DNA of 34,689 bases from Armatimonadota bacterium (GTDB lineage: Bacteria; Armatimonadota; Zipacnadia; Zipacnadales; UBA5352), in NCBI GenBank assembly GCA_034722055.1, contig JAYENL010000150.1, positions 1 through 34,689 of the forward strand. Direction: 5' to 3'. Positions 1,940 to 28,922 of the stretch are shown here, piece after piece; positions within the stretch are counted from its first letter, which is position 1, and the number at the start of each line of letters is the position of its first letter. The notes beneath the pieces were generated by a model. The model did no database searches. It saw only the letters and a list, made by a program, of their open reading frames with translations, and was not told the DNA's origin. A program made the translations under genes and the position numbers.

Positions 1940-1986
1940 TTGTATTTCGCACCCGATGTGGGTATAATTGTACCCGATATGAGTGC
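1940..1986 (+). promoter_or_regulatory. Sigma70-type promoter overlapped by a palindromic operator for the MNT-HEPN pair
   Basis: TTGTAT (1940-1945), 17-bp spacer, TATAAT (1963-1968). The near-palindrome gggtataattgtaccc covers the -10, and ACCCGAT occurs on both sides of it. Confidence 0.8.
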
Positions 1987-2617
1987 GAGGGCGGAAGAGG
2001 TCACGACGAGGATCGGCTCCGCGCTGTTCGGCGCGACCCGCAGGCGGGTGCTGGGGCTGCTGTTCCGCGAGTCCGAGCGCGACTTCTACCAGCGCGAGAT
2101 TGTGGAGGCAGTCGGCTGTGGGTCCGGAGCGGTGCAGCGCGAGCTGAAGCAGCTCGCCGGGGCCGGGCTGATTACGCGCGAGGCGCGCGGTCGAATGGTC
2201 TTCTACCAGGCCAACCGCCAGTGCCCGGTCTTCGAGGAGCTGCGCGGGCTGGTGATGAAGACCAGCGGCCTGGCCGACGTCCTGCGGCAGGCGCTGCAAC
2301 CCGATGCCGATCGGATCCGTGTGGCCTTCATCTTCGGCTCGATGGCCGACGGGACGGATGATGCGCTCAGCGACGTGGACGTGATGATCATCGGGGAGCT
2401 GACGCGATGGGATCGTGCTGGATCTTGGGTGGATGCGCAGTCGGCGTTGAACCGTGAGATCAACTCGGTGATCTGGTCGGAACAACAGTTCCGCCAGAAA
2501 CTGGCGGCTGGGGAGCACTTCGTCACCGCGGTCATGCGGGGGCCGAAGGTCTTCCTGATCGGGGATGAGCATGAGCTTCGACGAGTTGCTGCGAGCGAGG
2601 CGCCTGCGCCCACATGA
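1979..2617 (+). CDS. ArsR-like wHTH fused to a minimal nucleotidyltransferase (MNT antitoxin)
   Basis: N-terminal HTH (RRVLGLLF...FYQREIVEAVGCGSGAVQRELKQL) and MNT motif FGS-x10-DVD. The ATG at 1979 lies just downstream of TATAAT; the ORF track's TTG start at 1940 is the -35 box. Confidence 0.88.
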   Translation: MSARAEEVTTRIGSALFGATRRRVLGLLFRESERDFYQREIVEAVGCGSGAVQRELKQLAGAGLITREARGRMVFYQANRQCPVFEELRGLVMKTSGLADVLRQALQPDADRIRVAFIFGSMADGTDDALSDVDVMIIGELTRWDRAGSWVDAQSALNREINSVIWSEQQFRQKLAAGEHFVTAVMRGPKVFLIGDEHELRRVAASEAPAPT

Positions 2618-3032
2618 GACCACACCCGAAGAGATCGCGGCCCTGTTTGCCAGAGCCCGCCGGGATCACCGCCACGCACGGGTAAGTACCGACTCGGAGG
2701 ATTGGCGCTTCATCGCGGGATACAGCGCGGCTTTGTCTCTGGCGACGATTCCAATGGTTGCTTCGGGGTACCGCGCATCTGGCCCCGGGCATCACGTCAC
2801 AGTGATCACGGCACTGCCCGCAAGTCTGGGGTCTGAGGCACAGGAATTGACCAGATACCTCAATGAGTGCCGCGAGGTACGGAATCAGGCCCTTTACGAG
2901 AAGCCTGGCCTTGCGACGAAGGACCAGGTTGAGAATCTCCTGTCGGCCGTTGAGGAACTGCGCGCGCGAGTTCTGGCGTGGCTGGAGGAGAATCGTCCAG
3001 AGCTCCTGCCAGACGTGGCGGACGACGCGTAG
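2565..3032 (+). CDS. HEPN domain protein (putative toxin partner of MNT)
   Basis: All-helical ~155 aa with GYSAAL, GHH and RNQALY (HEPN Rx4-6H/Y-type motif). Overlaps the MNT gene; the start may be 2565 or 2571. Confidence 0.75.
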   Translation: MSMSFDELLRARRLRPHETTPEEIAALFARARRDHRHARVSTDSEDWRFIAGYSAALSLATIPMVASGYRASGPGHHVTVITALPASLGSEAQELTRYLNECREVRNQALYEKPGLATKDQVENLLSAVEELRARVLAWLEENRPELLPDVADDA

Positions 3033-10241: not shown

Positions 10242-11822
10242 GTGGCAATCCAGCAGCAACGGGGTCCGTCCGTGCGCAAGAGCAAGCGCAAGGTGACGCT
10301 GCAGGTGGTGGGCATCGCGCTGGCCATGGGGGCCATAGCGGTGCTGGTGGCGCTGCGCGGGACCGATAGCGTGGCCGTGCACCTGTTCTACCTGCCGATC
10401 ATCTACGCCGGCTTCGTCTTCGGGGATACCGGCGCCGTGGCGGCGGCGGTGGCGGGGGCAGCGCTCTGCGGGCCCTGGATGGCCGCCGACTACGTGGTTC
10501 ACGGGGACTCCACGCGAGCGGTGCCCCAGACGTGGTGGGACATCGGCCTGCGCACCGCCGTCTTCTACGTCGTGGGCGTGTTCGCATCGCGGGTGTCGCG
10601 GACCATCGAGAAGCGCGCCAATGAGATGCAGACCCTCTACGAGGTGGCGCGCACGATATCGTCATCGCTGCGCCTGCGGGAGGTGCTCGACGCCATCGCC
10701 CAGCAGGCGGTCTCGGCCATGGACGCCCGGGCCTGTTCCATCCGGCTGCTCGACCTCGAGACGGGGGAGCTGCAGCGGGCCGCCTCGGCGGGGCTGAGTG
10801 AGAAGTACTGGGGGAAGGGGCCGGTGACGGTGGAGGAGAGCGGCCTCGACCGGCGGGTGCTGGAGGGCGAGACCGTCGCCATCCTCGACGCCCAGACCGA
10901 TCCGCGGTGGCAGTACTCTGAGGCCGCCCGCGAGGAGGGCCTCACCTCCGTGCTGAGCCTGCCCCTGCGCGCCCGAGACAGCATCCTGGGGGTCATGCGC
11001 ATCTACGCCCACCGCAAGCGCGACTTCAGCGCTGAGGAGGTGGAGGTGCTCAGCGCCTTCGCCCACGGGGCTGCAGTGGCCATCGAGAACGCGGAGCTTT
11101 ATGAGGAGAGCCGCCGGGGCTACTTCGAGACCGTGCGGGCGCTGACCATCGCCATCGAGGCCCGGGACTCCGCCACCTACTCCCACTCCGAGCGGGTGAC
11201 CGAGCTGGCCGACGACCTGGCCGAGGAGCTGGGGATGCCGGAGGAGGACCGGGAGGTGCTGCGCTTCGGCTGCATCCTCCATGATATCGGCAAGATCGGC
11301 ATCGAGGAGCGGATGCTCGACGCCCGCGACACCGACGACGCCGAGCACATCTTCTACCGAATGCACCCCCTCATCGGCCGCTCAATCCTCCACCCGGTCA
11401 GCTTTGCCCAGGAGTTCATGCCCATTGTGATCCACCACCACGAGCGGTGGGACGGGCGGGGCTTCCCCGAGGGCCTGGAGGGCGAGGAGATTCCCTACAT
11501 GGCGCGGCTGGTGGCGGTCGTGGATTCCTATGAGCGCGCCGTCAACCCCACGGAGTCTCCGATGCCAGCCGGCCCTGAGGAGGCGCTGCGCAGCATCGTC
11601 CGCGGCTCCGGCACGGCCTACGATCCGGAGATCGTCACCGCCTTCGCGCGCATGATGCGCCGCAAGATCGAGGAGGGGGAGGAGGCCGGCAAGGCCCCCG
11701 GAGACATGCTCGAGGACGAGGACCGGGACATCGACTCCTACATCGAGGAGGCCATCAACGACGTCTCGTCGCTGAAGGCCGATCATGGCGGGGCGGAGCC
11801 CGAGGAAGCGGGGGAGGAGTGA
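10242..11822 (+). CDS. Membrane-anchored GAF + HD-GYP-like phosphohydrolase
   Basis: About four N-terminal TM helices, a GAF domain (SVLSLPL...GVMRIY...AVAIENAELY), then HSERV, LHDIGKIG and HHERWDGRGFP. Confidence 0.88.
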   Translation: MAIQQQRGPSVRKSKRKVTLQVVGIALAMGAIAVLVALRGTDSVAVHLFYLPIIYAGFVFGDTGAVAAAVAGAALCGPWMAADYVVHGDSTRAVPQTWWDIGLRTAVFYVVGVFASRVSRTIEKRANEMQTLYEVARTISSSLRLREVLDAIAQQAVSAMDARACSIRLLDLETGELQRAASAGLSEKYWGKGPVTVEESGLDRRVLEGETVAILDAQTDPRWQYSEAAREEGLTSVLSLPLRARDSILGVMRIYAHRKRDFSAEEVEVLSAFAHGAAVAIENAELYEESRRGYFETVRALTIAIEARDSATYSHSERVTELADDLAEELGMPEEDREVLRFGCILHDIGKIGIEERMLDARDTDDAEHIFYRMHPLIGRSILHPVSFAQEFMPIVIHHHERWDGRGFPEGLEGEEIPYMARLVAVVDSYERAVNPTESPMPAGPEEALRSIVRGSGTAYDPEIVTAFARMMRRKIEEGEEAGKAPGDMLEDEDRDIDSYIEEAINDVSSLKADHGGAEPEEAGEE

Positions 11823-11826
11823 TTGC

Positions 11827-13353
11827 ATGCGCACCGCCGTGAAGCTGTCGATGGTCGCCGCACTGGTGGCGGCGGCCCTGGGGCTGGCCTCCTGCTCGCA
11901 GATGGTTCAGCCCCCTCCGACTCCCGAGGAGCTTGAGCAGTTGGTCGGCACCGAGTGGTACAGCGTCCTCATCTTCGGGCAGCCCTCCGGCTACGCCCGC
12001 ATCGAGGCCGAGGTCATCGAGGGGCCCGACGGCTCCCACATGCGCACCAGCGAGGACGTGAAGGTCCTCGTCAACCTCCTGGGGCAGAGCCGGGAGGTCT
12101 CCAAGTCCCAGATCACCGAGTACGATCAGCAGTTCCGGCCCGTCAGCATCAAGCTGGTCAAGAACGAGCTGGGCCGGCCGGTGCGGGCCGAGGCGCGGCT
12201 CGCGCACGGCGAGCTGGTGGTGCGGACGAGCACGGAGGGGGACTCCGGCGCCCCCGCCAGGGTGGACACCTTCGAGGTCCCTGACGACCTGGCCTCAGAC
12301 CTCATCCTCGGCGTCAAGCTCCTCCGCGGCAAGCTGGACGTGGGCGACACGGTGGAGTACTCCGTCTATGACCCGGAGATCAACGTCATCGATCGCCACA
12401 TCGTCACCGTGGACCGCCGTGAGAGCGTGGACGACACCGAGGCCCTGGTGGTGAAGGCCGCCAGCGAGGAGCTGGGCATCGAGGTGGTGAGCTGGATCGC
12501 CGGGGACGGAACCATGCTGCGCCAGAGGGCGCCGGGGCTCATGGACCTGACCCTCGAGCGCGTCACTGAGGAGGAGGCCCTGGCGAGCCTGGCGCCCTTC
12601 GAGCTGAGCAATGTCATCGAGGTGGAGCATCACCTGCCGCTGGTCCGCAGCGTCAAGGAGGTCCGCCTGCGCGTGATCCGCAACCTGGGCGAGGCGGCGG
12701 AGCTGATCCCTCAGACGCGCCGGCAGACGGTGACCCCGGACGGCCAGCAGGCCAGCGTCACCATCAGCCGGGAGCGGCCCCCCGAGGACTCCCTGCCGCT
12801 GCCCATCACCGAGGAGTCTATGGCGGAGTACCTGCAGCCGAACAAGTACCTGCAGTGCGATGATGCCGGGCTGGTGGAGACCGCGCAGGAGATTGTCGGG
12901 GACGAGACCGACGCCTGGGGCGCGGCTCAGAAGCTGTGCTCGTGGGTGCACCGGGAGGTGGAGAAGGTGCAGAGCGAGCCGCGGCCCGTCACCGCGCTGG
13001 AGGTGCTGGACGAGATGCGCGGCGACTGCACCGAGCACGCCATCCTGCTGGCGGCCCTGGGCCGGGCGGTGGGCCTGCCCACGCGGATGGTCACGGGTCT
13101 GGCCTACGTCGGCGGGAAGTTCGGCTACCACGCCTGGACCGAGGTCTACGTGGGGCGCTGGGTGGAGATGGACCCGGCGTGGGGCGAGATGACCGCGGAT
13201 GCGGGGCATGTGCTGATCTACTCCAGCTCCCTGGAGCAGGCTGAGTGGGCGCGGGCGTCGCTGGCCACCGGCCGGACCATCGGCGCCATCGAGATGGAGC
13301 TGCTGGGGTACACGAAGGCCGACGGTGAGAGCGTGGGGTTCGACGAGTGGTGA
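11827..13353 (+). CDS. Transglutaminase-like superfamily lipoprotein (Cys-His-Asp triad)
   Basis: Signal peptide with lipobox LASC; GDCTEHA, YHAWTEVY, WVEMDPAW; ATG 4 nt after the HD-GYP stop. Confidence 0.88.
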   Translation: MRTAVKLSMVAALVAAALGLASCSQMVQPPPTPEELEQLVGTEWYSVLIFGQPSGYARIEAEVIEGPDGSHMRTSEDVKVLVNLLGQSREVSKSQITEYDQQFRPVSIKLVKNELGRPVRAEARLAHGELVVRTSTEGDSGAPARVDTFEVPDDLASDLILGVKLLRGKLDVGDTVEYSVYDPEINVIDRHIVTVDRRESVDDTEALVVKAASEELGIEVVSWIAGDGTMLRQRAPGLMDLTLERVTEEEALASLAPFELSNVIEVEHHLPLVRSVKEVRLRVIRNLGEAAELIPQTRRQTVTPDGQQASVTISRERPPEDSLPLPITEESMAEYLQPNKYLQCDDAGLVETAQEIVGDETDAWGAAQKLCSWVHREVEKVQSEPRPVTALEVLDEMRGDCTEHAILLAALGRAVGLPTRMVTGLAYVGGKFGYHAWTEVYVGRWVEMDPAWGEMTADAGHVLIYSSSLEQAEWARASLATGRTIGAIEMELLGYTKADGESVGFDEW

Positions 13354-13417
13354 CGTGCGCGATTCCACGTATGTTGACGACGAGCACGCTCAGCGCCTGG
13401 ACGCCCGGAAGGTGCGC

Positions 13418-13510
13418 GTTGGGCCTGGTGGAGGGGCCGCCGGGCGCGTAGCGCCCGGTGAGGCCTGTGAGCCTAGCGAACAGGCCGAAGGTTCCGCCCC
13501 GGCCCACAAC
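13418..13510 (+). repeat. Multi-hairpin GC-rich element (REP/miniature-element-like or ncRNA)
   Basis: Hairpins ccgggcgc-gta-gcgcccgg (13440-13458) and ggcctgt-gagcctagcga-acaggcc (13462-13486), closed by an imperfect outer stem. Confidence 0.45.
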
Positions 13511-13555
13511 TCAGCACGAGCCCGCCGTTGAAGCCGCGGCGTGTGGGCCTCCTCG

Positions 13556-13686
13556 CTCGTCGCTTGTAGCTCGTGGCTGGTACAAGATGGCAGTCGGGTT
13601 GGAAGCCCGACCTACGCGGAAGAGGGAGCTGTCGCGGTCATTCGTCGTTAGCTCGTTGCTCGTAGCTTGTCGCTCGTCGCTTGCAG
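13556..13686. repeat. Two degenerate heptamer tandem arrays (consensus CTYGTNG)
   Basis: ctcgtcg-cttgtag-ctcgtgg-ctggtac (13556-13583) and ctcgttg-ctcgtag-cttgtcg-ctcgtcg-cttgcag (13652-13686). Confidence 0.75.
13593..13615 (-). repeat. GTAG-type REP element
   Basis: Minus strand reads GTAG-GTCGGG-cttccaa-CCCGAC: a GTAG tetranucleotide followed by a palindrome. Confidence 0.65.
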
Positions 13687-13707
13687 CTCCCGCTAAGCGG
13701 GACACGG

Positions 13708-13733
13708 AATGCAGGCGAGGGCGCCTGCATTAC
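13708..13733 (-). repeat. Second REP-like palindrome (GTAA-type)
   Basis: Minus strand reads GT-AATGCAGGCG-ccct-CGCCTGCATT. Confidence 0.55.
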
Positions 13734-13826
13734 TGAACGTGGGGGGCCGAGTCGGAGTTGAGGAGACACACCGCCGTGCCGTCGGATAGTACGCGAGATT
13801 CCGCCACTCAGCACAGGAGGAGTGAG

Positions 13827-15011
13827 ATGAGGGGGCTGGCAGCGGTTCTCATGACGATGCTGCTCGCCTGCCCGGCGCTGTGCCAGGAGCAGGCCGAGGA
13901 GCCGCCGGCGCCTCAGGGCGAGGGCGAGCTGGTCATCGCGCGGGCCGTCTGGCCCGACCATGATCTGAGCAACACCGTTTACCGGGTCTTCTCCGACCAG
14001 GCCATGAAGCAGCTTGTCGATGCCTTCCCCGCCGGCGGCGCCGGGGGCGCGGCCGGCATGGTCCTGGACCCCGGCGACTACTACCTCATGGCCGTGGTCG
14101 ATGCCAACGGCAACGGCGTGCCGGACGCCGGCGACGGCCTGGGCTTCTACGGCGTGGAGACCCTCTCCAGCCAGGCCCGCCCTCAGCCGCTTCAGGTCCG
14201 CGAGGGCTTCGTCGGCACCGCCACAGTGCCCATCCTGGTGCGAATGACCGAGGGCAATCAGCTCGAGGCGCTGCCCTGGGCCGTGGCCATGACGCGGGGG
14301 ACGCTCAGCGGCACTGTGACGGGAAGCGAGTTGCCCGTGGTGGTGGCGCTTCTGCCGGTGGCCGAGGACGGGCGCGCGTTCGCCGCGCTGGCGGCCGAGG
14401 ACGGCAGCTTCTCCGTCACCGCCGCGCCCGGTGTATACCGCGTCATCGCCGTCGCCGACGGGGACGAGGATCAGCACGCCTCCGACGGCGACCTCGTGGC
14501 CCTTCGGGGCTGGGGTGAGGAGGATCCCGCGGAGGTCGTCGCCGATGAGGACCTGCCGGTCGGCGAGCTGGCGCTCGCGGCGGGCGCTCCGCCCGAGGAG
14601 CTGCCCCCACTGGTGGCCGGCCGCGTGCTGCACGCCGGGCTTGACGAGGGCGGCAGCATCACCGTGGCGTTCTGCGCCGAGCAGGCCATGCAGAGGGAGG
14701 TAGCGACGCTACGCGCCACGGCCGACGGCCGCTTCGCGGGGACGGTCGAGCCGGCGACCTACTACCTGCGCGCCACCGTCGATCAGAGGAGCGATGACGC
14801 CCTCGGGCCCGGGGACATGTTGGGCTTCTACGGCGTGTCGGACCTGATGACCGAGAGGCGGCCGCAGGCCCTGAGCTTGACCACGAACGCCCTGATCACC
14901 GGCATCACCATTCCCATCACCGCCCGGATCAGCGAGGAGGGCAGCCTCACCGCCTACCAGTCTGAGGAGGCCGCCGACACCGCGCCTGCCGACGATGCTG
15001 GAGATCAATGA
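13827..15011 (+). CDS. Secreted protein with three internal beta-sandwich repeats carrying Asp-rich (Ca-binding-like) loops
   Basis: AGGAGG RBS and signal peptide; repeats PGDYYLMAVVDANGNGVPDAGDGLGFYG, PGVYRVIAVADGDEDQHASDGD and PATYYLRATVDQRSDDALGPGDMLGFYG. Confidence 0.75.
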   Translation: MRGLAAVLMTMLLACPALCQEQAEEPPAPQGEGELVIARAVWPDHDLSNTVYRVFSDQAMKQLVDAFPAGGAGGAAGMVLDPGDYYLMAVVDANGNGVPDAGDGLGFYGVETLSSQARPQPLQVREGFVGTATVPILVRMTEGNQLEALPWAVAMTRGTLSGTVTGSELPVVVALLPVAEDGRAFAALAAEDGSFSVTAAPGVYRVIAVADGDEDQHASDGDLVALRGWGEEDPAEVVADEDLPVGELALAAGAPPEELPPLVAGRVLHAGLDEGGSITVAFCAEQAMQREVATLRATADGRFAGTVEPATYYLRATVDQRSDDALGPGDMLGFYGVSDLMTERRPQALSLTTNALITGITIPITARISEEGSLTAYQSEEAADTAPADDAGDQ

Positions 15012-19353: not shown

Positions 19354-19635
19354 GTGATCCGCGTGGACTGGAAGCCTTTCCTGGTGGCGTTTGCGACCAT
19401 CTTCGTTGCTGAGCTTGGCGACAAGAGGCAGCTCGCAGCATGCTTCATCGCCGCTGAGCAGCAGTGTCCGTGGATGGTGCTGCTGGGAGCGAGTATCGCG
19501 CTCACCGTGGTCAGCGCCATCGGTGTGCTGGTGGGACACTTCGCCGGCGCGTGCCTGCCCCGCGACCCCATCCGCTACGTGGCGGCGGGGCTGTTCGTCA
19601 TTATCGGCGTGCTCATTGCCCTGAACGTGATCTGA
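19354..19635 (+). CDS. Half-size TMEM165/GDT1 (UPF0016) family Mn2+/Ca2+ transporter subunit
   Basis: Three TM helices and motif IFVAELGDKRQLA (family motif ExGD[KR][TS]); alternative GTG start at 19363. Confidence 0.85.
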   Translation: MIRVDWKPFLVAFATIFVAELGDKRQLAACFIAAEQQCPWMVLLGASIALTVVSAIGVLVGHFAGACLPRDPIRYVAAGLFVIIGVLIALNVI

Positions 19636-19704: not shown

Positions 19705-20016
19705 TCAGTCCAGGTGATCCTCGATGAAGCCTATTAACTGGTCGGGGCTCTGGGAGCCGACCACTCGTCCACGCTCCTGACCGGCCTGAAAGAGGATGAA
19801 GGTTGGCACCCCCAGGATGTGATACCGGGCTCGCAATCGAGGATTGCGATTGACGTTGACCTGAAAGACCTCCAGATCAAAGCCACTGTCTTCCAGCTTC
19901 CTCAGCGTCGGCTCCATCTGCTTGCAGGGGATGCACCATGAGCCCCAGAAGTCGACCAGCACTGGCTTGTCTGCCTGAAGCACCTCTTGATCGAAGTTTC
20001 TGGCGGATATCTCCAT
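19705..20016 (-). CDS. Thioredoxin
   Basis: NFDQEVLQADKPVLVDFWGSWCIPCK and cis-Pro loop GVPTF; alternative GTG start at 20061 overlapping the upstream stop. Confidence 0.92.
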   Translation of the reverse strand: MEISARNFDQEVLQADKPVLVDFWGSWCIPCKQMEPTLRKLEDSGFDLEVFQVNVNRNPRLRARYHILGVPTFILFQAGQERGRVVGSQSPDQLIGFIEDHLD

Positions 20017-20057
20017 TGGTATGTGCCCTCGTGTGTTCAGCGGTTTGGGGACGATGC

Positions 20058-21617
20058 TCACTGCGCCGAGAGGCGCATCGTCGGTTGGGCTTCGCCAGTG
20101 ACCAGCCTTCCTTGATACCCCTCTTGCTCCCTGGTACCCGGCTCATAGACCTCCAGCACCTCGGAGTCGCGCTTCTCTCCTGACCAGCGGGTCTTTGGCA
20201 TGACGGTGTGCTTCTTCATTTCGATTCGAGACTGAATCTCGGGCCGGGTGAGGAGCTTGAGCATCTCCGTGACCTCCTCTTCCAGTGTGATCTTTGGCCG
20301 GAAGCCGAAGGCGTTGGGCAGCTTCTGAGAGACGACCTCAAGGGGGTGCTGCTCGGCCTCCACGCGAGGGTTCTCGAGGCGCTGGATTTCCACGTTGAGG
20401 CCGAAGTCCTTTCCGACTTCGGCGACCACTTCGGCCAGGTCAGCGATCTTGTGCAGCCCGGAGACCTGGTTGACAACATCGTATTGCCCCGGCTCGGGCG
20501 GCGACACCAGGAGCCGCGTCATGCACTCCATCGCATCGGCGAGGGCGATGAAGCCCCGGATCTGCTCACCCTTGCCATAGATCGTGAGCGGGATGCCCAG
20601 GACGGCCTGCGCGACGAACCGGTTGATGACAGTGCCGAACCACTCGTCGATGTCGAGGCGAGTGCGAAGCCGGTAGTCCTTGCACACCTCCGGGGTGTGC
20701 ACCCCGTAGATGATCCCCTGCATGATGTCATAGGAGCGAAGCCACCAGTACTTGCAGGCCTCGTAAATATTGAAGGTGTCTTGGACCTTGGAGCAGTGAT
20801 AGAAGCTGACCGGATCGCGGGGGGTGATCTCGCCGCCCATACTCCACTCACGTTCATCCCATTGTAGCACTGCGTCGCTGGAAAACATCCCCTCAAAGAG
20901 GGGCCGCCCGGTCAGCGGTGCGCCGTACTCCCCCATGGTGCCAAGCTTGATAAGAGCGCTCTCTGGAACGACATCCTTCATCACCCACAACAGGCCCAGC
21001 GTGCCCAGAGTGTTGTTGTTTTGCGTCTCGATGGCGTGCTCGGCATCAACCATTGAGTAGGGAGCGCTGGGGATTTCGGCGTAGTGGACGATCGCCTCGG
21101 GGCGGACCTCTTGCATGAACTCATTGAGCTTGTCCATGTCCCGAATGTCCATCCGTCGGAAGTTGATGGTCAGCCCCAGGACTTCCTGAGCCGCTTCCAG
21201 GCGCTGGGTCATTCGAGCAATCGGCACGACGGTGTGGGCGCCCTTCTCCATGACACAATCGCGCCGGGTATAGTTGTCAATCCCGCTGACCTGACAGCCG
21301 AGCCGCGCCAGCTTCAGCGCCAGCGTCCAGCCCAAGTAGCCGTCGATCCCCAGGATCATCACTCTCATGTTCTTGAGCATGTACCCGTAATCGGTCGGCT
21401 CCCATTCCGGGCATTGCTCGAAGGTGATAGAGGGGTCGAAGGTGCCCAGTTCCGGGCGCCGGCGGCACTCTATGAGTATCTGGCCGTCGTGCTCCTCCTC
21501 GGGTCTCTCCCGCGACTGGCCACAGGCGGTGAAATCAATGCTCCCGACGATGTCGGCTGCCGGGCAGTTCCAGCACGTCTTGTTGGCATTATGCAGGTGC
21601 TTGCCGTGGCCGCTCAT
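20058..21617 (-). CDS. sqdB: UDP-sulfoquinovose synthase (SqdB/SQD1/Agl3)-like extended SDR with an additional Cys-rich N-terminal domain
   Basis: GIDGYLGW NAD motif, SAPYSM, KLGTMGEYG, YHCSK, QGIIYG, FGTVINRF, PLTIYGKGEQIRGF, NPRVE; AGGAG RBS before the ATG at 21617. Confidence 0.82.
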   Translation of the reverse strand: MSGHGKHLHNANKTCWNCPAADIVGSIDFTACGQSRERPEEEHDGQILIECRRRPELGTFDPSITFEQCPEWEPTDYGYMLKNMRVMILGIDGYLGWTLALKLARLGCQVSGIDNYTRRDCVMEKGAHTVVPIARMTQRLEAAQEVLGLTINFRRMDIRDMDKLNEFMQEVRPEAIVHYAEIPSAPYSMVDAEHAIETQNNNTLGTLGLLWVMKDVVPESALIKLGTMGEYGAPLTGRPLFEGMFSSDAVLQWDEREWSMGGEITPRDPVSFYHCSKVQDTFNIYEACKYWWLRSYDIMQGIIYGVHTPEVCKDYRLRTRLDIDEWFGTVINRFVAQAVLGIPLTIYGKGEQIRGFIALADAMECMTRLLVSPPEPGQYDVVNQVSGLHKIADLAEVVAEVGKDFGLNVEIQRLENPRVEAEQHPLEVVSQKLPNAFGFRPKITLEEEVTEMLKLLTRPEIQSRIEMKKHTVMPKTRWSGEKRDSEVLEVYEPGTREQEGYQGRLVTGEAQPTMRLSAQ

Positions 21618-21630
21618 TGCTCATCTCCTG

Positions 21631-22887
21631 TCAATCCCTGATGATCGAGACGACATCCTCAACGGTCGGAGTCTCGGGCACGATCTCGTCGGCTCGGGGA
21701 TCTCTGACCATTAGGAACGCCTGGTCATTGTGCATCCCCGGCAGTCTGCTCGGCTGATGGAGATCAGCAGTCAGTCGTCCGACCAGCCTGAATGAGGGAT
21801 TGGGTACAGCCACAAGGTGGGGCGCCTTGTGCAGATTATCTCCGTAGTAGATCTCCTCGCGGCGGTGGACCTGCCTGATCGCCTTCCCGCCGTTGACCTG
21901 CAACTGCGCGAGGAACTCGGTCAAGCGGTCAAGGAGCGCCTCCTGTTGGCTTGCCTCAACCGAGCCCTTGGGGAAGCGCTCTCTCTCGTTCACGTAGACA
22001 CGGCCGTTCTCCAGAGCAAACGCGGCTGACCCTTCCTGGATGCGGTTATACTTCCTGGCCTCCCCCTGGTCGAGCTTCAAGAAGCCTCCGTCCATCAGGC
22101 AGGCGTTCAAGTTCACCTCGTGGACCGAGCCTTCCATGCCATGATCGGAGAGGACCAGAAGCCTATCCTCCGGGTTCAGCCGTTCCGCAATGCGCTCGAT
22201 GGTCTGATCGACCCGCCGGAAGTACTCCAGGAACTTGTCGTGGCTCGGGTGATCCTGATCTTGCCAATGATGCCAGCCGAAGTGGCCGATGCGGTCGCTA
22301 CCGGTGACTACCAACATGAAGACCGCAGGGTGATATTCCTCCCAGAGGTAGTCCGCCAACTCCTCTCGTTTCGCATGTGTTTCGTAGAGCTGCTTATACA
22401 GCACCAGCTCCGACTGCTTGGCCTTCTCGACGTCCAGATCAACTCTGTAGCCCAGAGTCTCCAGGGTCTCCAGCTCGCTGCTGGGATAGACTGCCTTTTC
22501 CAGGCGTGGTGAGACGAAACCCGAGATATGGCAGCCTTGCAGTGGTTGCGCTGGATAGGTGGAGGGGACATTGATGATAACGCAGTTACCTGTCTCGTGG
22601 TGCCAGAAGGGCGGCCGCTTCAGGTCCAGGAAGTTGGGGTAGCGGATGCTATAGGTGCCCGGCACCATGTCGGAGAAGCCATAGATACCATGCTCACCAG
22701 GATTGCGTCCGGTAACGATTGAGCTCCAGGACACCGAGGAGACTGCCGGGACGGACGAACGCATCGGCCGGAATACCCCGTCCCTCGCCAGCGAGCGCAG
22801 AAACGGGATCACTCCTTGATCGGCAAGCTCCTCCATCAGGGAGAAAGGAGCTCCATCAATTCCGATGATGACCTTACGCTTGCTCAT
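21631..22887 (-). CDS. Alkaline phosphatase superfamily protein (type I phosphodiesterase/nucleotide pyrophosphatase family)
   Basis: IIGIDGA, SSVPAVSSVSWSSIVTGRNPGEHGIYGF, NVPSTYP, DRIGH, LSDHGM, GMH; no signal peptide. Confidence 0.88.
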   Translation of the reverse strand: MSKRKVIIGIDGAPFSLMEELADQGVIPFLRSLARDGVFRPMRSSVPAVSSVSWSSIVTGRNPGEHGIYGFSDMVPGTYSIRYPNFLDLKRPPFWHHETGNCVIINVPSTYPAQPLQGCHISGFVSPRLEKAVYPSSELETLETLGYRVDLDVEKAKQSELVLYKQLYETHAKREELADYLWEEYHPAVFMLVVTGSDRIGHFGWHHWQDQDHPSHDKFLEYFRRVDQTIERIAERLNPEDRLLVLSDHGMEGSVHEVNLNACLMDGGFLKLDQGEARKYNRIQEGSAAFALENGRVYVNERERFPKGSVEASQQEALLDRLTEFLAQLQVNGGKAIRQVHRREEIYYGDNLHKAPHLVAVPNPSFRLVGRLTADLHQPSRLPGMHNDQAFLMVRDPRADEIVPETPTVEDVVSIIRD

Positions 22888-23275
22888 ACTGCTGTGCCAC
22901 CTATCGCATGATGCTGTGAGGCGCTGACTTTCAGTGTATCCTCGTCTATCCCGGTTGTTCGCGTCGGTCCGCAGGTGAGAGCGCGGCGCGCTGCGTTAAC
23001 GGGCGAGCTCGCCCTCATCGCGAGAACGCCGGCCAATGGTCCGGGCTGGAGCCTGCGGCACGGAGCCCTGATGCTGATACCACACGCGAAGCTCCCCTGG
23101 TGTTCGCCTCGTGATCATCCGGGCGACTGCGGCTATGCGTTGTGGTTCCCCGCACGCAACTATCCTCAGAGAGGGCCGGGGGGCCAGCTATCCATAGGTT
23201 TCCGCGCGTGCAGCAGCACATACCGCCAAGTCAGGAACCCTCATATAGGAGCCCCTCTGAGCGGAGGACTGACCA

Positions 23276-23342
23276 GGGCACGACGGACCGCGAAACACTT
23301 CGCTTCAGACCCTGGCAGAGGCTCCTGCCATTCCTCGTGCCC
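23276..23342 (-). ncRNA. Putative structured RNA element (three-way junction), family unassigned
   Basis: Minus strand: GGGCACGA/UCGUGCCC outer stem, UGGCAG/CUGCCA hairpin, and GGGUC-UGAA-GCGAA/UUCGC-GGUCC arm whose G-U pairs favour this strand. Confidence 0.35.
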
Positions 23343-23388
23343 CACACGGAGTCCCCTCGCTGACGTCCCCCGCATCGGAGACACACGC

Positions 23389-23418
23389 ACACTATCATGT
23401 CCTCTAGCCAGCCGTCAA
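23389..23418 (-). promoter_or_regulatory. Candidate sigma70 promoter directed toward the phosphodiesterase-sqdB-trx operon
   Basis: Minus strand: TTGACG (23418-23413), 18-nt spacer, extended -10 TG-A-TAGTGT (hexamer 23394-23389). Confidence 0.5.
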
Positions 23419-23783
23419 GACCGTCAGCATGCGGGGCAGCGTTGGGCCCTCCCGCCGGCACTACTGGTGCTCAATCCAACGACCAGCTCCGACATACGCT
23501 GCGACGAGTATTCGCCATGTGCCACGCCTGTCCTTCCCTGCGACGTGTGCCTGTGAAGAGAAACGCTAGCGCTGGTAGGAGCCGATCACGTTCACAGGCG
23601 CGTCGGGCCCGCCCCGAGTGACCAGCACCGGCGGTCTCACTCACGCCTCCGTGAGGGTGAGCCTCAGGCGCGGTCGCTGGACGCGGCCCGGATGCGGCAG
23701 GGGCAGGAGGTCGGCACCTATCGACCGCAGAAGACTGTGACGCGCAGGGATTCGTGGAGTGGAGTCTGGGATGGAGAGGCATC

Positions 23784-26700
23784 ATGGCTGCCACGCGCCG
23801 ACGCTGTCGCCCCTGTCACGCCGCGCACCTTGCGATCGCCATCTCGCTGGCGGCCCTCTGCAGTGCCGCCGCGCTCGCCGACGACTGGCCCACGGTTCGC
23901 CACGATAACGCCCGCAGCGGCTGGACAACGGAGACGGTTGAGCCGCCGCTGCGGCTCCGCTGGGCCTTCCGGCAGAAGTACCCTCCGCAGCAGGCCTGGA
24001 GCGGGCCACGCGATGAGGCGGTCGAGGGCAACTGGGAGAAGGACCGCATCGCCTTCGATGTCGTGAACCACGTGGCCGTCGCGGATGGCTCGGTCTTCAT
24101 GGGGTCCTCAGGCGACGGCACGGTCTACTGCCTCGACGCAGAGACAGGCCGCATCCGGTGGTCCTTCATCACCGGCGGGCCGGTGCGACTGGCGCCTGCG
24201 GTCGCCAACGGCCGGGTCTACTTCGGCTCCGATGATGGCCACGCCTACTGTGTCAGCGCCGATGACGGCAGCCTCGTGTGGCGGCTGCAGGCCGGCCCGG
24301 AGGATGACCGGCTGATCGGCAACGGGTGGATGGTGTCGCGGTGGCCGGTCCGAAGCGGGGTGCTGGTCGATGATGGCACCGCCTACTTCGGCGCAGGCGT
24401 CTTCCCGCACGAGGGCGTCTACGTCTGGGCCGCGGATGCCGATGACGGCCGGCTGATCTGGCGCAATGACACCACGTCAACGGCGGCGGAGCGGGGGCTA
24501 TTGGGCGGCCCGGGCAGCAACGAGCTGTCTCCGCACGGCTACCTGCTGGCGTCGCAGAGCCGCCTGTTCGTCGCCTCCGGCCGCGCCCTGCCCGCCGCCT
24601 TCGACCGCGAGGATGGTCGGAAGCTCTATCAGTCCCATGACAGTTGGCGAAGCAGCGGCATCGTTGGCGGCACCTTCGCCGTGCTGGCGGATGATCACAT
24701 TCTGGTCGGCGCCAACCAGGCGGTGGGCTACGACCAGGAGTCGGGCAGGGGCGGCTTCGCCTGGTTCCCCTGCCGGCGGCTTGTGGTCGCCGATGAGCTG
24801 GCGTACATGACCACCGACGCGGTACCGACCGAGACCAGCGGGTCCCCGCTGACCGAGGAGGTCACCTGCGTCAGCTTCGAGCCATACGCGGAGGCCACGC
24901 GCGAAAGGAAAACCACTCAGCGGCAGATCACATCCCTGGAGAGGCAGCACTCCGACACGCAGGGCCGGCTTCGCGCCGAGAGGGCCAAGCCTGAGGGCGA
25001 GCAGGACGCGGAGCGCATCGCGGAGCTTGCCGAGCAGGTTGAGGAGACCGAGGCGAAGCTGGAGGCTGCGAGGGAGCGCCTGGAGGAGATCGAGGGCCGG
25101 ACTCTGCAGGCGCAGGTCAGGTGGCGGACGCCCACGAGCTGCGCCTCCAGCCTGATCCTCGCCGGGGACGTGCTCTACGCAGGTGGGGAGGGGCTGGTGG
25201 TGGGCTATGATGCCGGTAGCGGCGATGAGGTGTGGCGCGCTGAGGTGGATGGCGACGCGCGGGGGCTGGCTGCGGCCGACGGCGCGCTCTACGTCAGCAC
25301 CGACGCGGGCCTGCTGTACTGCTTCGCGCCCGGCGACGGCGAGCCCGGCCCTATGCTCGAGCAGACTGCCGACGGGGGAGTCTACGGCGAGGACGAGCCG
25401 ATGTCCGCGGTCTACCGGGCGGCGGCGGAGGCCATCGTCAGCTCTTCGGGCGTGCGCCGCGGCTTCTGCCTGGTCCTGGGCGTTGAGACCGGCCGGCTGG
25501 CGTACGAGCTTGCGCGCCGGACCGATCTGAAGATCTACTGCCTGGAGGCGGATGCGGAGAGGGTGCAGACCGCGCGGGCGGCGCTGAGTGCCGCCGGGGT
25601 CCACGGCGGCCGCGTCTTCGTCGATCAGGGCGACACCAGCGACATCCCCTACCCGGACTACTTCGCGAATCTCATCGTCTCCGAGAGCGCCCTTCATGGC
25701 AGGGCGCTCCCGGAGGTCACTGAGGAGATCATCCGCACTCTCAAGCCGTGCGGCGGCGTCGTCTGCGTGGGGCGGCCGGAGAACGCGCCCGCGGCCCTCA
25801 CCGCCGAGAGGCTGACCGGGTGGCTGCGCTCGTTCAACTGTGGGGAGCCGAGCGTCAGCCGGGATGCCGGGTTGTGGGGGACCATCGTGCGCGGGGCGCT
25901 CCCCGGAGCGGGAAGCTGGACCCACCAGTACGCCGAGCCGGGCAACACCGCCGGCGGCGACGATGACATCAGGTGCCCGCTGGGCCTGCTGTGGTACGGC
26001 GATCCGGGCCCGGACAAGATGCTCAGCCGACACGCCCGGAGCGTGGCGCCGCTGACAGTGGACGGACGGCTGCTGATGCAGGGCAATAACGTGGTGATGT
26101 GCTACGACGCCTACAACGGCGTGCGCTACTGGGAGCGGCAGATCGAGGGCGCAGTGCGCTCCGGCATGACCCACCGGGCGAGCAACACCTGCTGCAACTC
26201 CAGACACATGTTCGTGGCCGTGGGCCCGCAGTGCCTGCGGCTGGACGTGAGCACTGGCGAGACCACGGCCACCTTCGAGCAGCCCGACGCTGCTGCGGAC
26301 GAGCCCCCCGCGTGGGGCTGGATCGCCACCGTCGGCGACCTCCTCTACGGGAGCACCAGCCTGGACGGGCAGTTCAGCGCGGGCGTCTTCGCGCTCGACG
26401 CCGAGAGCGGCGACCCGCGCTGGGTGTACGAGGGCACCCGGATCAAGGACAATACCATCGCCATCGGCGACGGCCGGATGTTCTTCGCCGACAGCGTCGA
26501 GCTTACCGACCAGCAGCGCCGGGAGGCGGTTGCGGAGAGCGGCGGCGATCCCGACAGCGCCGACGTGCGAATGGTGGTGTGTCTGGACGCGGCCACCGGC
26601 GACACGCTGTGGGAGCGGCCGGTTGACCTCACCGACTGCGGCGGCGCCAGCAACGTGCTCATGGCCATGTACCGCGACGGCGTCGTGGTGTTCAGCGCGG

Positions 26701-28922
26701 CCCACTGGAACGGCCACTACTGGGGACAGTTCCTGGGGGGCGACTACGGCGAGCGCCGCGCGGTGGCCCTCGCCGCCCAGGACGGCGAGCTGCTGTGGCA
26801 CAAGCGGATCGGGTATCGCATCCGACCGCTGATCGTGGGCGAGCAGTTCGTGGCGGAGCCCTGGGCCTTCGATCTGCATACCGGAGAGCAGCGAATGCGC
26901 GCGCACCCGATCACCGGGGAGCAGGTCCCCTGGCAGTTCGAGCGCCCCGGCCATCACTGCGGCTGCATCTCGGGGGCCGACAACCTGCTGCTGTTCCGAT
27001 CCAGCTTCATGGGCTACTACGACCTGGTGGAGGACTACGGCACCTGCCACTTCGGCGCCCTCCGCCCCGGCTGCTGGATCAACGCCATCCCGGCCAGCGG
27101 GCTGGTGGTCATGCCCGAGGCCAGCTCCGGCTGCCAGTGCCTCTACGCCATCCAGTGCACCGTGGTCTTCCAGCCGGTGGATAAGCCGCGGACCTGGGGC
27201 CTCTTCAGCACCCCCGGCCCGCACAGGCCCGTGACGCATCTGGCAGTGAACCTGGGCGCGCCCGGCGACCGCCGGGCCGCCGACGGTAAGCTGTGGCTCT
27301 CCTACCCCCGGCCGTGGTCGCGCATGCAGACTCAGTTCGAGCTGAAGCCGACCCTGCATGAGGGTGGCGGATACGTCTCGGACGATCCCCGGCTGGCGGC
27401 GATCGAGGGAGCCGCCACGCCCTGGCTCCACACGTCCGGCCTCCGGGGTCTGAGGCGGCTGGAGGTGCCTCTGGTCCAGCGAGGCGATGCTCCCGCGGCG
27501 TACAGGGTGCGCCTGCACCTCTTGGCACCGCCGGAGGGCGAGGGTCAGCCGCCGGTGGATATCAGGCTGCAGGGCGAGACTGTGGCCGAGGGCCTGGACG
27601 TGCGCCAGGCGGCCGGCGGGCCGAGCCGGCCGCTGGTGCGCGAGTTCGACCCGGTGCCGGTGCGCGGCGAGCTGCAGATCGAATTCGCTCCGCGGGTCGA
27701 GGAGCCGGCCGCCGACAGCGTTCCGCTGCTCAGCGCGGTAGAGCTGGAGCGCGTGTCGCTGCCGGGCATGGACGCCCAGGTGCAGACGCTCCGGAGACCG
27801 TTGGCGCGCCACAACCTCGGCTACTGGCTGGCCGAGGTGCTGCGTCAGGCGGCCGACGCCGACATGGCGCTGATCCCCTGCGACAGCGTGTGGCTGGAGG
27901 GCGATCGCGTGGAGGCCGGCACGCTGACGCTGGGCGAGCTGCTGGCCCACGTGACCGACGCCCGCCTGGTGCGCCATCGCGTCACGGGCGCTGAGCTGCT
28001 GGAGTACCTGAGCAATCCCCGTGTTGCGGACCGGCTGAATCCGCTGAGCCATGGCCGGGCGTCGCAGGAGCTCAACTCGCTGTATCATGCCGGGCTTGAG
28101 GTGACCTACGATGCCGACCGTCGGTCAGTGCGGCTCGACCTCGACCCCGGGCGGCAGTACGCGCTGGTGAGCGTCTGCCCCTTCGCCGGTCTGGGCGGGC
28201 GGGCGCAGGCCCTCGACGCGGAGGCGGCAGCGGAACATTCGGCCATCCCGGGCCTGCGGTCCGAGGCGGCCGAGGTGCTCGAACTGACAACCTGGAGCGT
28301 CCTGGAGAGCCTGGGCGCGGAGGGCTTGAGCCTCACACGACGCTACCCTGAGGCGCTCGCCATCTGGGAGACGTGGCTGGAGCATGCGGAGGAGCAGATG
28401 GGCTACCACCTGACCGAGTGGCCCGAGGACCTGCCCGCGGTCACCATCGAGGCCGCCGCTGACGCCAGCGTCCGACACGCACAGCCGAATGGCACCATGG
28501 GCTCGGGCGCCACTGTGACGGTAGACGGTGGCGACAGGGAGCTGGGGGACGGCTCGCACACGCTGATCTACCTGCGCTTCCCGCTGGATGTGCCGGGCCG
28601 GCCCGTCATGGCGAAGCTGCGTCTGCGGACGCATGACGGTGGACACTCCAACAGCGCGGAGGCCGGCGACGTTCGAGTGGTGGAGGAGCCCTGGGAGGAG
28701 ACAACGGTGACCTACAAGGCCCGGCCGAGTCCCGGCGAGAAGGTGGGGGCGCTGGGGGCCGTGGAGCTCGGCCAGGTCAGCGAGCACCTGCTGAAGGTCG
28801 ATCTGCGGGCCCGCGACGAGCTGTCGCTTGGGATCGTGCCGACATCCTGCGATGCGGCAGTGTTCCTGGCGCGCGAGAGCGGCGACGGGCCGGAGCTGAT
28901 CGTGGCCTACCAGCCGCAGTGA
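23784..28922 (+). CDS. Giant secreted multi-domain protein: two PQQ-type (BamB-like) beta-propellers, degenerate methyltransferase-like domain, malectin-like domain, 5'-nucleotidase-C-like domain and DNRLRE-like domain
   Basis: Signal peptide then DWPTVRHDNARSG; repeated LDAxxG...W Trp-docking motifs; GFCLVLGVETGRLAYELA; WTHQYAEPGNT; HHCGC/RPGCW/SGCQC; C-terminal ADASV...YLRF...AKLRL...WEETTVTY. Confidence 0.85.
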   Translation: MAATRRRCRPCHAAHLAIAISLAALCSAAALADDWPTVRHDNARSGWTTETVEPPLRLRWAFRQKYPPQQAWSGPRDEAVEGNWEKDRIAFDVVNHVAVADGSVFMGSSGDGTVYCLDAETGRIRWSFITGGPVRLAPAVANGRVYFGSDDGHAYCVSADDGSLVWRLQAGPEDDRLIGNGWMVSRWPVRSGVLVDDGTAYFGAGVFPHEGVYVWAADADDGRLIWRNDTTSTAAERGLLGGPGSNELSPHGYLLASQSRLFVASGRALPAAFDREDGRKLYQSHDSWRSSGIVGGTFAVLADDHILVGANQAVGYDQESGRGGFAWFPCRRLVVADELAYMTTDAVPTETSGSPLTEEVTCVSFEPYAEATRERKTTQRQITSLERQHSDTQGRLRAERAKPEGEQDAERIAELAEQVEETEAKLEAARERLEEIEGRTLQAQVRWRTPTSCASSLILAGDVLYAGGEGLVVGYDAGSGDEVWRAEVDGDARGLAAADGALYVSTDAGLLYCFAPGDGEPGPMLEQTADGGVYGEDEPMSAVYRAAAEAIVSSSGVRRGFCLVLGVETGRLAYELARRTDLKIYCLEADAERVQTARAALSAAGVHGGRVFVDQGDTSDIPYPDYFANLIVSESALHGRALPEVTEEIIRTLKPCGGVVCVGRPENAPAALTAERLTGWLRSFNCGEPSVSRDAGLWGTIVRGALPGAGSWTHQYAEPGNTAGGDDDIRCPLGLLWYGDPGPDKMLSRHARSVAPLTVDGRLLMQGNNVVMCYDAYNGVRYWERQIEGAVRSGMTHRASNTCCNSRHMFVAVGPQCLRLDVSTGETTATFEQPDAAADEPPAWGWIATVGDLLYGSTSLDGQFSAGVFALDAESGDPRWVYEGTRIKDNTIAIGDGRMFFADSVELTDQQRREAVAESGGDPDSADVRMVVCLDAATGDTLWERPVDLTDCGGASNVLMAMYRDGVVVFSAAHWNGHYWGQFLGGDYGERRAVALAAQDGELLWHKRIGYRIRPLIVGEQFVAEPWAFDLHTGEQRMRAHPITGEQVPWQFERPGHHCGCISGADNLLLFRSSFMGYYDLVEDYGTCHFGALRPGCWINAIPASGLVVMPEASSGCQCLYAIQCTVVFQPVDKPRTWGLFSTPGPHRPVTHLAVNLGAPGDRRAADGKLWLSYPRPWSRMQTQFELKPTLHEGGGYVSDDPRLAAIEGAATPWLHTSGLRGLRRLEVPLVQRGDAPAAYRVRLHLLAPPEGEGQPPVDIRLQGETVAEGLDVRQAAGGPSRPLVREFDPVPVRGELQIEFAPRVEEPAADSVPLLSAVELERVSLPGMDAQVQTLRRPLARHNLGYWLAEVLRQAADADMALIPCDSVWLEGDRVEAGTLTLGELLAHVTDARLVRHRVTGAELLEYLSNPRVADRLNPLSHGRASQELNSLYHAGLEVTYDADRRSVRLDLDPGRQYALVSVCPFAGLGGRAQALDAEAAAEHSAIPGLRSEAAEVLELTTWSVLESLGAEGLSLTRRYPEALAIWETWLEHAEEQMGYHLTEWPEDLPAVTIEAAADASVRHAQPNGTMGSGATVTVDGGDRELGDGSHTLIYLRFPLDVPGRPVMAKLRLRTHDGGHSNSAEAGDVRVVEEPWEETTVTYKARPSPGEKVGALGAVELGQVSEHLLKVDLRARDELSLGIVPTSCDAAVFLARESGDGPELIVAYQPQ

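Follow-up and report, generated by a model that had tools for sequence, protein, structure and literature searches.

UDP (uridine diphosphate)-sulfoquinovose synthases such as Arabidopsis SQD1 (1qrr, 1i24), SqdB and Sulfolobus acidocaldarius Agl3 have the extended short-chain dehydrogenase/reductase (SDR) fold, and an SqdB-like step is part of the sulfoquinovosyl diacylglycerol (SQDG) lipid pathway, encoded as sqdB-sqdX or sqdBDC (PMC13436972; statements credited here to PMC numbers refer to excerpts of those papers). The supply of sulfite to these synthases in the cell was stated to be unknown (PMC4388408), and the excerpt of a 2026 review is silent on thioredoxin and adenosine 5'-phosphosulfate (APS) (PMC13436972). 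In CysH-type reductases of APS or 3'-phospho-APS (PAPS), it is established that a thiosulfonate (S-sulfocysteine) is formed on the enzyme and that sulfite is released from it by thioredoxin (PMC1175818). Here, a three-gene cassette encoding an alkaline phosphatase (AP)-superfamily enzyme, an SqdB-like synthase and a thioredoxin was analyzed in a 34,689-nucleotide stretch of DNA (the window) from an Armatimonadota bacterium (assembly GCA_034722055.1, contig JAYENL010000150.1). The three genes form a conserved cassette in many uncultured bacteria and archaea. On balance, it appears somewhat probable that the cassette makes UDP-sulfoquinovose or a close 6-sulfonated nucleotide sugar for surface glycans, with sulfite made from activated sulfate by a relay among its proteins. 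This reading is based on gene linkage, residue conservation, genome inventories and phylogeny, while an iron-sulfur fold and a thioredoxin contact that it includes are predicted only.

The synthase resembles SQD1, SqdB and Agl3 in its extended SDR fold, approximately 36% identity and catalytic residues, whereas it differs from them in an extra N-terminal five-cysteine domain, a C-terminal extension, Pro in place of Arg101, and fixed AP-fold and thioredoxin partners. The features of the locus are as follows.

21631-22887, minus strand: AP-superfamily enzyme (nucleotide pyrophosphatase/phosphodiesterase (NPP)-like, PF01663), 418 aa.
20058-21617, minus strand: SqdB/SQD1/Agl3-like extended SDR (the synthase), 519 aa, with a cysteine domain at its N terminus and a conserved extension at its C terminus (approximately residues 478-507).
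21390-21593, minus strand: five-cysteine domain of the synthase, residues 9-76, with C15, C18, C32, C51 and C69.
19705-20016, minus strand: thioredoxin, 103 aa from the ATG at 20016; an alternative GTG start at 20061 gives 118 aa (19705-20061).
22862-23429, minus strand: upstream leader, which shares 69% identity over 575 nt with its counterpart in a congeneric genome (L001).

Domain searches matched the AP enzyme to PF01663 (139 bits; cut-off 23), the thioredoxin to PF00085 (87.4 bits; cut-off 23.5) and the synthase to the UDP-sulfoquinovose synthase model NF041015 at 427.6 bits, below a cut-off of 575 that was passed by one of two matching control genomes (Synechococcus and Sulfolobus). The ATG at 20016 is the likelier thioredoxin start, because GAGGG lies upstream of it and homologues begin there. 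The sequence-only reading had described the trio as the only minus-strand genes of the window, tightly packed, poorer in GC than the flanks and without an adjacent glycosyltransferase, and each of these features was borne out. The AP gene and the synthase gene are 13 nt apart, and the thioredoxin gene follows with a GTGA overlap or 41 nt before its ATG. Among 22 scanned window proteins, the remaining Pfam-positive open reading frames (ORFs) all lie on the plus strand. The three genes have a GC content of 0.596, whereas the genome averages 0.684, a value as low as theirs being found in 2 of 1763 genome windows of the same size. GC at third codon positions (GC3) is 0.75, 0.81 and 0.71, compared with 0.83-0.95 in most flanking genes; of 2744 long ORFs in the genome, 68 have a GC3 of at most 0.747 and 328 of at most 0.813. 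No glycosyltransferase, and hence no sqdX or sqdD/sqdC partner beside the synthase, was present among the 22 window proteins (unlinked sqdX genes elsewhere in the genome were outside the search).

By scanning GTDB genomes, 187 relatives were found and 80 loci were kept, and a protein search with synthase residues 1-130 returned 598 proteins. The 80 loci come from Thermoplasmata, DPANN, Asgard, Bathyarchaeia, the candidate phyla radiation (CPR), Chloroflexota, Planctomycetota, Omnitrophota and other taxa, the closest relatives being Armatimonadota. Thioredoxin lies directly downstream of the synthase in all 74 GTDB loci with at least 400 nt of downstream sequence. The AP gene lies directly upstream in 60 of 74 loci by script, or in 62 when L043 and L077, with overlapping ORF calls, are added by eye; it is elsewhere in the locus in five more, is missing locally from L029, L035, L036, L038, L068 and L073, and is present in L066 as a partial copy separated from the synthase by one gene. 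When a cassette-type AP gene was sought genome-wide in five genomes, four were positive, three with an unlinked copy and one with a copy in a second full cassette, and G023 was negative. A metagenome scan served as the control set and yielded 18 loci of the domain-bearing clade and 62 loci without the domain. Among the testable domain-bearing loci, thioredoxin was present in 13/14 and the AP gene in 12/12, while SqdB relatives without the five-cysteine domain had neither (0/48 for each; one locus carries a partial AP gene approximately 5.5 kb away). Since the partners are present with the domain and absent without it, the domain, the thioredoxin and the AP enzyme go together. Pairwise distances of the three proteins are also correlated (Spearman 0.46-0.56, reached by 0/500 permutations), partly owing to shared host ancestry. 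Thus, the earlier suggestions of a stand-alone module and of a tie between thioredoxin and synthase are upheld, the former by the co-occurrence of the trio across genomes and the latter by the link of thioredoxin to the cysteine domain. No description of the cassette was found in the open-access literature, supplements not covered.

The suggestion that the module does not serve SQDG lipid also agrees with its genomic context. The SqdB-like step is shared with the lipid pathway, whereas glycosyltransferases are lacking in the window and the neighbors elsewhere are surface-glycan genes (the flippase Wzx, WbaP, Wzz and glycosyltransferases of families GT2 and GT4) and ATP sulfurylase. A small GT2 gene occurs within 1.5 kb downstream in 26/80 loci, glycan genes in 34 of the 51 long loci, and ATP sulfurylase inside the locus in 16 of these 51. 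The downstream use is therefore probably a surface glycan, as judged from gene neighborhoods.

In the proposed route, ATP sulfurylase, encoded nearby or elsewhere, would form APS, which the AP-fold enzyme would bind at its two-metal site and whose sulfo group it would pass to a thiol, directly or via Ser50; the acceptor would most plausibly be Cys32, on a loop of the predicted [4Fe-4S] domain of the synthase. The dedicated thioredoxin, recycled by thioredoxin reductase, would reduce the S-sulfocysteine and release sulfite beside the synthase, whose NAD-dependent SDR core would add it to the 5,6-ene intermediate of UDP-glucose, as in SQD1 and Agl3. A glycosyltransferase, elsewhere often a small GT2 just downstream, would then move the sugar into a surface glycan. 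The enzyme would be a variant of a known synthase, and the sulfite route would be new if shown. Next to CysH and AprAB, such a route would be a third and unrelated way of reducing APS, composed of an AP-fold sulfotransferase, a cysteine in a domain like that of high-potential iron-sulfur proteins (HiPIPs) and a private thioredoxin, a tentative proposal that falls a little short of probable. It resembles CysH-type reductases only in the way of working, namely in a proposed S-sulfocysteine freed by thioredoxin and in a predicted cluster plus one free cysteine; unlike CysH, PF01507 is found neither in the three proteins nor in the host genome, and the work would be divided, one part falling to the AP-fold enzyme and the other to a domain of the enzyme that consumes the sulfite.

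The SDR core of the synthase is well conserved. By searching the predicted model with Foldseek, the three best matches were all SQD1 (E approximately 5e-28; the next match at 1e-12), with a TM score of 0.75 to 1i24; the full-length model is poor at residues 226-301 (pLDDT below 50) and was used for this fold match only. In the alignment of 79 synthases, from which two loci were excluded by a pattern filter, the NAD motif G-x-D-G-Y-x-G and the catalytic triad are kept, with G90, D92, G93, G96, T227, Y273 and K277 each in 79/79; T227/Y273/K277 correspond to the Agl3 triad Thr145/Tyr182/Lys186. At the positions of Agl3 His95, Met145, Glu147, Tyr148 and Ser180 are H178 (79/79), M228 (69/79, Leu in 10), E230 (79/79), Y231 (77/79) and S271 (79/79). 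The residue set tested in Agl3 includes Arg101, which is essential, R101A being inactive (PMC4388408). At this position (P183 in the host) the cassette synthases have Pro in 77/79 and Thr in 2/79, and the neighboring Gln is Ile, Cys or Asn. Because the essential Arg101 is replaced, the exact sugar product may differ from UDP-sulfoquinovose, a point that the sequence comparison sets against the product named above. The same losses, together with the NF041015 score under its cut-off, the very long stem of the clade and the second SDR gene that often follows the cassette, would be consistent with a different sulfur sugar, for which sulfur is delivered as a thiol or persulfide or another nucleotide sugar is used (such as a 6-thio sugar or sulfofucose). 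However, every other residue reported as needed in Agl3 is kept, the cassette shows linkage with ATP sulfurylase, and neither a cysteine desulfurase nor a sulfurtransferase cluster was seen repeatedly in its neighborhood, which makes this alternative quite unlikely. As a marker of the cassette, the Arg101-to-Pro change was ruled out by the presence of Pro in 50/59 domain-less SqdB relatives (L168-L229); being common to most of them, it is a trait of a broader clade and does not settle the exact product. Intein-like insertions of approximately 340 aa, called by a start motif that we take to be that of inteins, were also observed in synthases, at the catalytic Thr (P0017, P0044) and just past the Tyr-His of YxxxK (P0048, with PF14528), as well as in CysD of G011 (L103).

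The N-terminal domain has C15, C18, C32, C51 and C69 each invariant (79/79), with spacings of 2, 13, 15-23 and 17-18 residues, and C32 sits in an invariant D-F-x-x-C-G-Q loop. When modeled alone, it had a pLDDT of 77 and a poorly defined loop at 28-44, which holds C32. In a structure comparison with 48,161 chains, only 2y8n_B, 1isu_B and 9o8u_F reached a Z score of at least 2. All three are HiPIP-like [4Fe-4S] folds with a CX2CXnCXnC motif (PMC13450708, PMC12358834), chain F of 9o8u being taken as the gamma subunit by its length. C15, C18, C51 and C69 fit this motif and C32 is extra. At the ends of the aligned range, C15 pairs with HiPIP residue 22 and C69 with residue 55, both of which we take to be cluster ligands; the choice of the four ligands thus depends on aligned ranges and on the HiPIP numbering assumed here. 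The domain is accordingly predicted to be a putative HiPIP-like [4Fe-4S] fold, and C32 is a candidate free thiol because the HiPIP-like match uses the other four cysteines. Like HiPIPs and the small subunits of glycyl radical enzymes (1isu, 2y8n_B, 9o8u_F), it shows the CX2C...C...C pattern and a weak fold match, and unlike them it has a long insert carrying a fifth cysteine and a fusion to an SDR. In an atlas comparison, the nearest named family was DUF6472 (0.80 and 0.87), which is a lead only. A search with PF18524 gave zero matches in 49 genomes and in controls alike and is uninformative. As for a stand-alone form of the domain, of 52 short matches 29 continue into the SDR start and the rest are fragment-like by eye, none being clearly a complete free domain.

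The thioredoxins of the cassette share the motif W-[AG]-S-W-C-x-x-C (W-G-S-W-C-I-P-C in the host), with CxxC in 71/74, CxxS in 3/74 and CGPC in 0/74. The canonical TrxA model TIGR01068 missed the host protein (88.5 bits against a cut-off of 96.8), which has WCIPC instead of WCGPC. Prediction of a synthase-thioredoxin complex lends weak support to a contact, with a score of 0.42 (best of three controls, 0.00), which falls in a range (at most 0.60) that held only 18/157 solved complexes and both passing mismatches (2/215) in calibration; the contacts agree by at least 80% between runs, and the partner pLDDT is 85-86. A separate observation is a C-terminal L-x-x-LGY tail that many AP paralogues and several cassette thioredoxins have in common with CysD and with a small membrane-like protein encoded next to cysD (loci L006, L027, L045, L049, L051, L065, L067 and L115), possibly a common docking tag.

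The AP enzyme has no hydrophobic membrane stretch, and the predicted nucleophile Ser50 and metal ligands D11, D198, H202, D248, H249 and H386 are each found in 64/64 copies. The PF01663 match and intact metal ligands are shared with NPP (2gsn) and phosphonoacetate hydrolase of the same superfamily, while the enzyme has a Ser nucleophile and is distant from solved structures (best E 2e-07). AP-fold proteins VNG1056C and VNG1057C are glycan sulfotransferases in Halobacterium, PAPS being unmentioned in the excerpt (PMC11980604), and they are likened to the enzyme by fold precedent, not by sequence. In a tree of 59 rows (34 cassette copies plus paralogues), the cassette copies form one clade (support 99), whose sister group includes a host gene directly after sat-cysC (contig C314). 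In L062, L065 and G021, copies of the cassette type come after cysD-cysN. A paralogue placed farther away in the tree forms a fusion with ATP sulfurylase in an 858-aa ORF (L143:1963-4536, minus strand; G026:C429), followed by cysC. These genomic partners of the AP enzyme point to activated sulfate. The sequence-only reading had instead assigned it to hydrolysis of UDP-sulfoquinovose or to transfer of sulfoquinovose-phosphate to an acceptor. Its nearest solved relatives are nucleotide pyrophosphatases and phosphonoacetate hydrolase, and no glycosyltransferase lies beside the host cassette, both of which would suit that function. On the other hand, the gene is placed upstream of the synthase and is never found beside domain-less SqdB (0/48), it comes after sulfate-activating genes or is fused to one, and the loci counted above encode a small GT2 separately, just downstream. 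This assignment was thus left unsupported, and it seems the least probable of the explanations considered.

Several further AP-superfamily genes were observed in the same genomes or in related settings. The Sat-AP fusion of L143 has Thr at the nucleophile position and falls in a clade with two further paralogues, one of the host on C36 and the other near sat-cysC in L057. In cassette-free DPANN loci (L119, L120, L121 and L122), cysD (with cysN in three) stands alongside AP-superfamily genes with no cysC in 10-15 kb, which suggests AP-fold enzymes that may use APS directly. Of two polysaccharide loci of the host, one (L115, G000:C194) combines GT4 and export-like genes with four genes of the AP superfamily, and the other (L118, G000:C103) contains an AP gene together with a GT2 and genes of an ABC transporter. 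The acceptor pathway of the host is unlinked to the cassette, and the C194 and C103 loci are candidate users of the sulfo-sugar.

Sulfur metabolism genes were inventoried in 50 genomes, picked for diversity from the 80 loci. ATP sulfurylase was found in 46/50, as Sat in 33 (one partly masked) and as CysD in 13 of the 17 others; G002 has one divergent CysD-like gene. CysC occurs in 31/50, the sulfite/nitrite reductase domain PF01077 in 5/50, and thioredoxin reductase-like proteins in 49/50 (25 above cut-off), whereas a known APS/PAPS reductase was detected in only seven (CysH-type in six, AprA in two). Eleven genomes have CysD and no match to CysC, CysH-type reductase or AprA; one of them, G006 (L006), a genome marked unpublished, adds one to these counts and contributes a single row to alignments and trees, and no conclusion rests on it. 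The single 1.6-Mb contig of G034 carries the cassette, Sat and CysC without a PF01507 or AprA match, and the host genome (92.7% complete) has sat-cysC and thioredoxin reductase without a match to PF01507, AprA or PF01077. In a DPANN order sample, CysD was found in 5/351 genomes and the cassette in 1/351, the cassette genome having CysD. These counts bear on the possibility that sulfite comes from thiosulfate or another S-sulfonate, with Cys32 and thioredoxin acting as a thiosulfate reductase and the AP enzyme as an accessory. The synthase-thioredoxin link is indeed stricter than the AP link, and the genomes lacking an AP or ATP sulfurylase match (described below) would fit. However, the frequency of ATP sulfurylase in the genomes and inside the loci, including tiny DPANN and CPR genomes in which it is otherwise rare, makes a thiosulfate source very unlikely. 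Divergent cysteine-free CysD-like proteins, under all NCBIfam cut-offs and with no cysN nearby, were additionally noted beside the cassette in L002 (2536-3375) and L003 (6368-7213).

A number of observations weigh against the proposed relay. The inventoried genomes are incomplete metagenome-assembled genomes, related and not independent. G023, a chromosome of 1.9 Mb assembled as one contig and masked in places, encodes synthase and thioredoxin and gave no cassette-type AP match, and no ATP sulfurylase match was found in G031, G045 and G048. The seven genomes with a CysH-type reductase or AprA have the cassette as well, and seven archaea encode PAPS reductase-like proteins with a PUA domain, whose function is unassigned. 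In the DPANN sample, four cassette-free genomes have CysD, three of them with another AP gene alongside. Relatives of the host that lack the cassette also have ATP sulfurylase (5/5), and APS or PAPS could be used by sulfotransferases and other AP paralogues; co-occurrence of cassette and ATP sulfurylase is therefore not specific in the host family. The nearest solved AP relatives attack phosphorus and would hydrolyze APS rather than transfer sulfur. Regarding the domain, the HiPIP-like matches (Z 2.1-2.8, rmsd 2.4-2.6 over 41-42 residues) lie far under the trust level of the comparison tool, a Foldseek-led second look at the fold gave no match, and no sequence link to HiPIPs was found in Pfam, NCBIfam or PDB sequences. 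Moreover, HiPIP-like clusters of glycyl radical enzymes appear structural (PMC13450708, PMC12358834), and domain-less SqdB relatives would require sulfite without the cassette.

Some of these points would be accommodated if the synthase used free environmental or metabolic sulfite, with the cysteine domain and thioredoxin protecting or regulating it and the AP enzyme doing a separate glycan job, such as O-sulfation from APS/PAPS or removal of PAP (the adenosine bisphosphate by-product) or pyrophosphate. AP-fold O-sulfotransferases exist (PMC11980604), other AP paralogues stand beside CysDN in the cassette-free DPANN loci L119, L120 and L122 and in host polysaccharide loci, the AP gene is movable or missing in some cassette genomes, the clusters seem structural in glycyl radical enzymes, and domain-less relatives manage without the partners. 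In contrast, the AP enzymes of the cassette are monophyletic and their tree follows that of the synthase, whereas the history of an O-sulfotransferase should mirror the glycan that it modifies. In the eleven genomes that make APS without a kinase, the AP gene cannot have been kept for PAP clean-up, and the fifth invariant cysteine exceeds the need of a Cys4 cluster. Use of free sulfite is thus considered unlikely.

With regard to the origin of the cassette, trees were built quickly (IQ-TREE short search and FastTree, midpoint roots). The domain-bearing synthases form one clade on a very long stem (support 100), in which four Armatimonadota sequences group together (97), beside a Saccharibacteria-labeled copy in a mostly archaeal part; the AP-enzyme tree shows the same pairing. 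The cassette was found in 4/41 relatives, all in the host family (3/17 other family members), and SqdB-like matches in 5/401 genomes of the phylum. In L009, homologues of the window genes at 10242-15011 and 19354-19635 keep their side and strand relative to the cassette, which again has a low GC content. The earlier view that the operon looks foreign is supported, as regards its origin, by tree position and rarity in the phylum. The acquisition is not recent, since four genomes of one family share a single clade and one relative keeps the neighboring genes. The data fit one old transfer into one Armatimonadota family followed by losses, which would explain the low GC. As to marks of mobility, no tRNA occurs in the window, repeats are at chance level only, the region is single-copy in the genome, and the five-cysteine domain was absent from the viral contigs and plasmids searched.

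Promoter and terminator scans near the cassette were at chance level, including a single sigma70-like site (23418-23391) in the leader, and Rfam gave no credible structured RNA upstream, with one sub-threshold snoRNA match inside a gene. Elsewhere in the window, a second low-GC3 locus (1940-3032, plus strand) is a gene pair, first a helix-turn-helix plus MntA-like nucleotidyltransferase and then a 155-aa ORF without a family match; it looks like an MNT-HEPN-type toxin-antitoxin, the HEPN part being guessed from context. A single-repeat GDT1 protein of 93 aa (19354-19635, plus strand) converges on the cassette, its homologous stretch lying 4 kb from the cassette in L009, and a 1722-aa PQQ-propeller protein with methyltransferase-like, 5'-nucleotidase C-like and CBM96 domains (23754-28922, plus strand) is divergent from it.

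The cassette reduces the question of sulfite supply to a three-protein test-tube experiment. If the proposed relay is true, it would be a new sulfate-to-sulfite route missed by present genome annotation, and it would provide a job for a large uncharacterized group of AP-superfamily enzymes encoded beside ATP sulfurylase. Many anaerobes, archaeal as well as bacterial, would join the organisms that make sulfoquinovose, and the route would let minimal anaerobes (DPANN, CPR, Asgard and Thermoplasmata) form carbon-sulfur bonds from sulfate.

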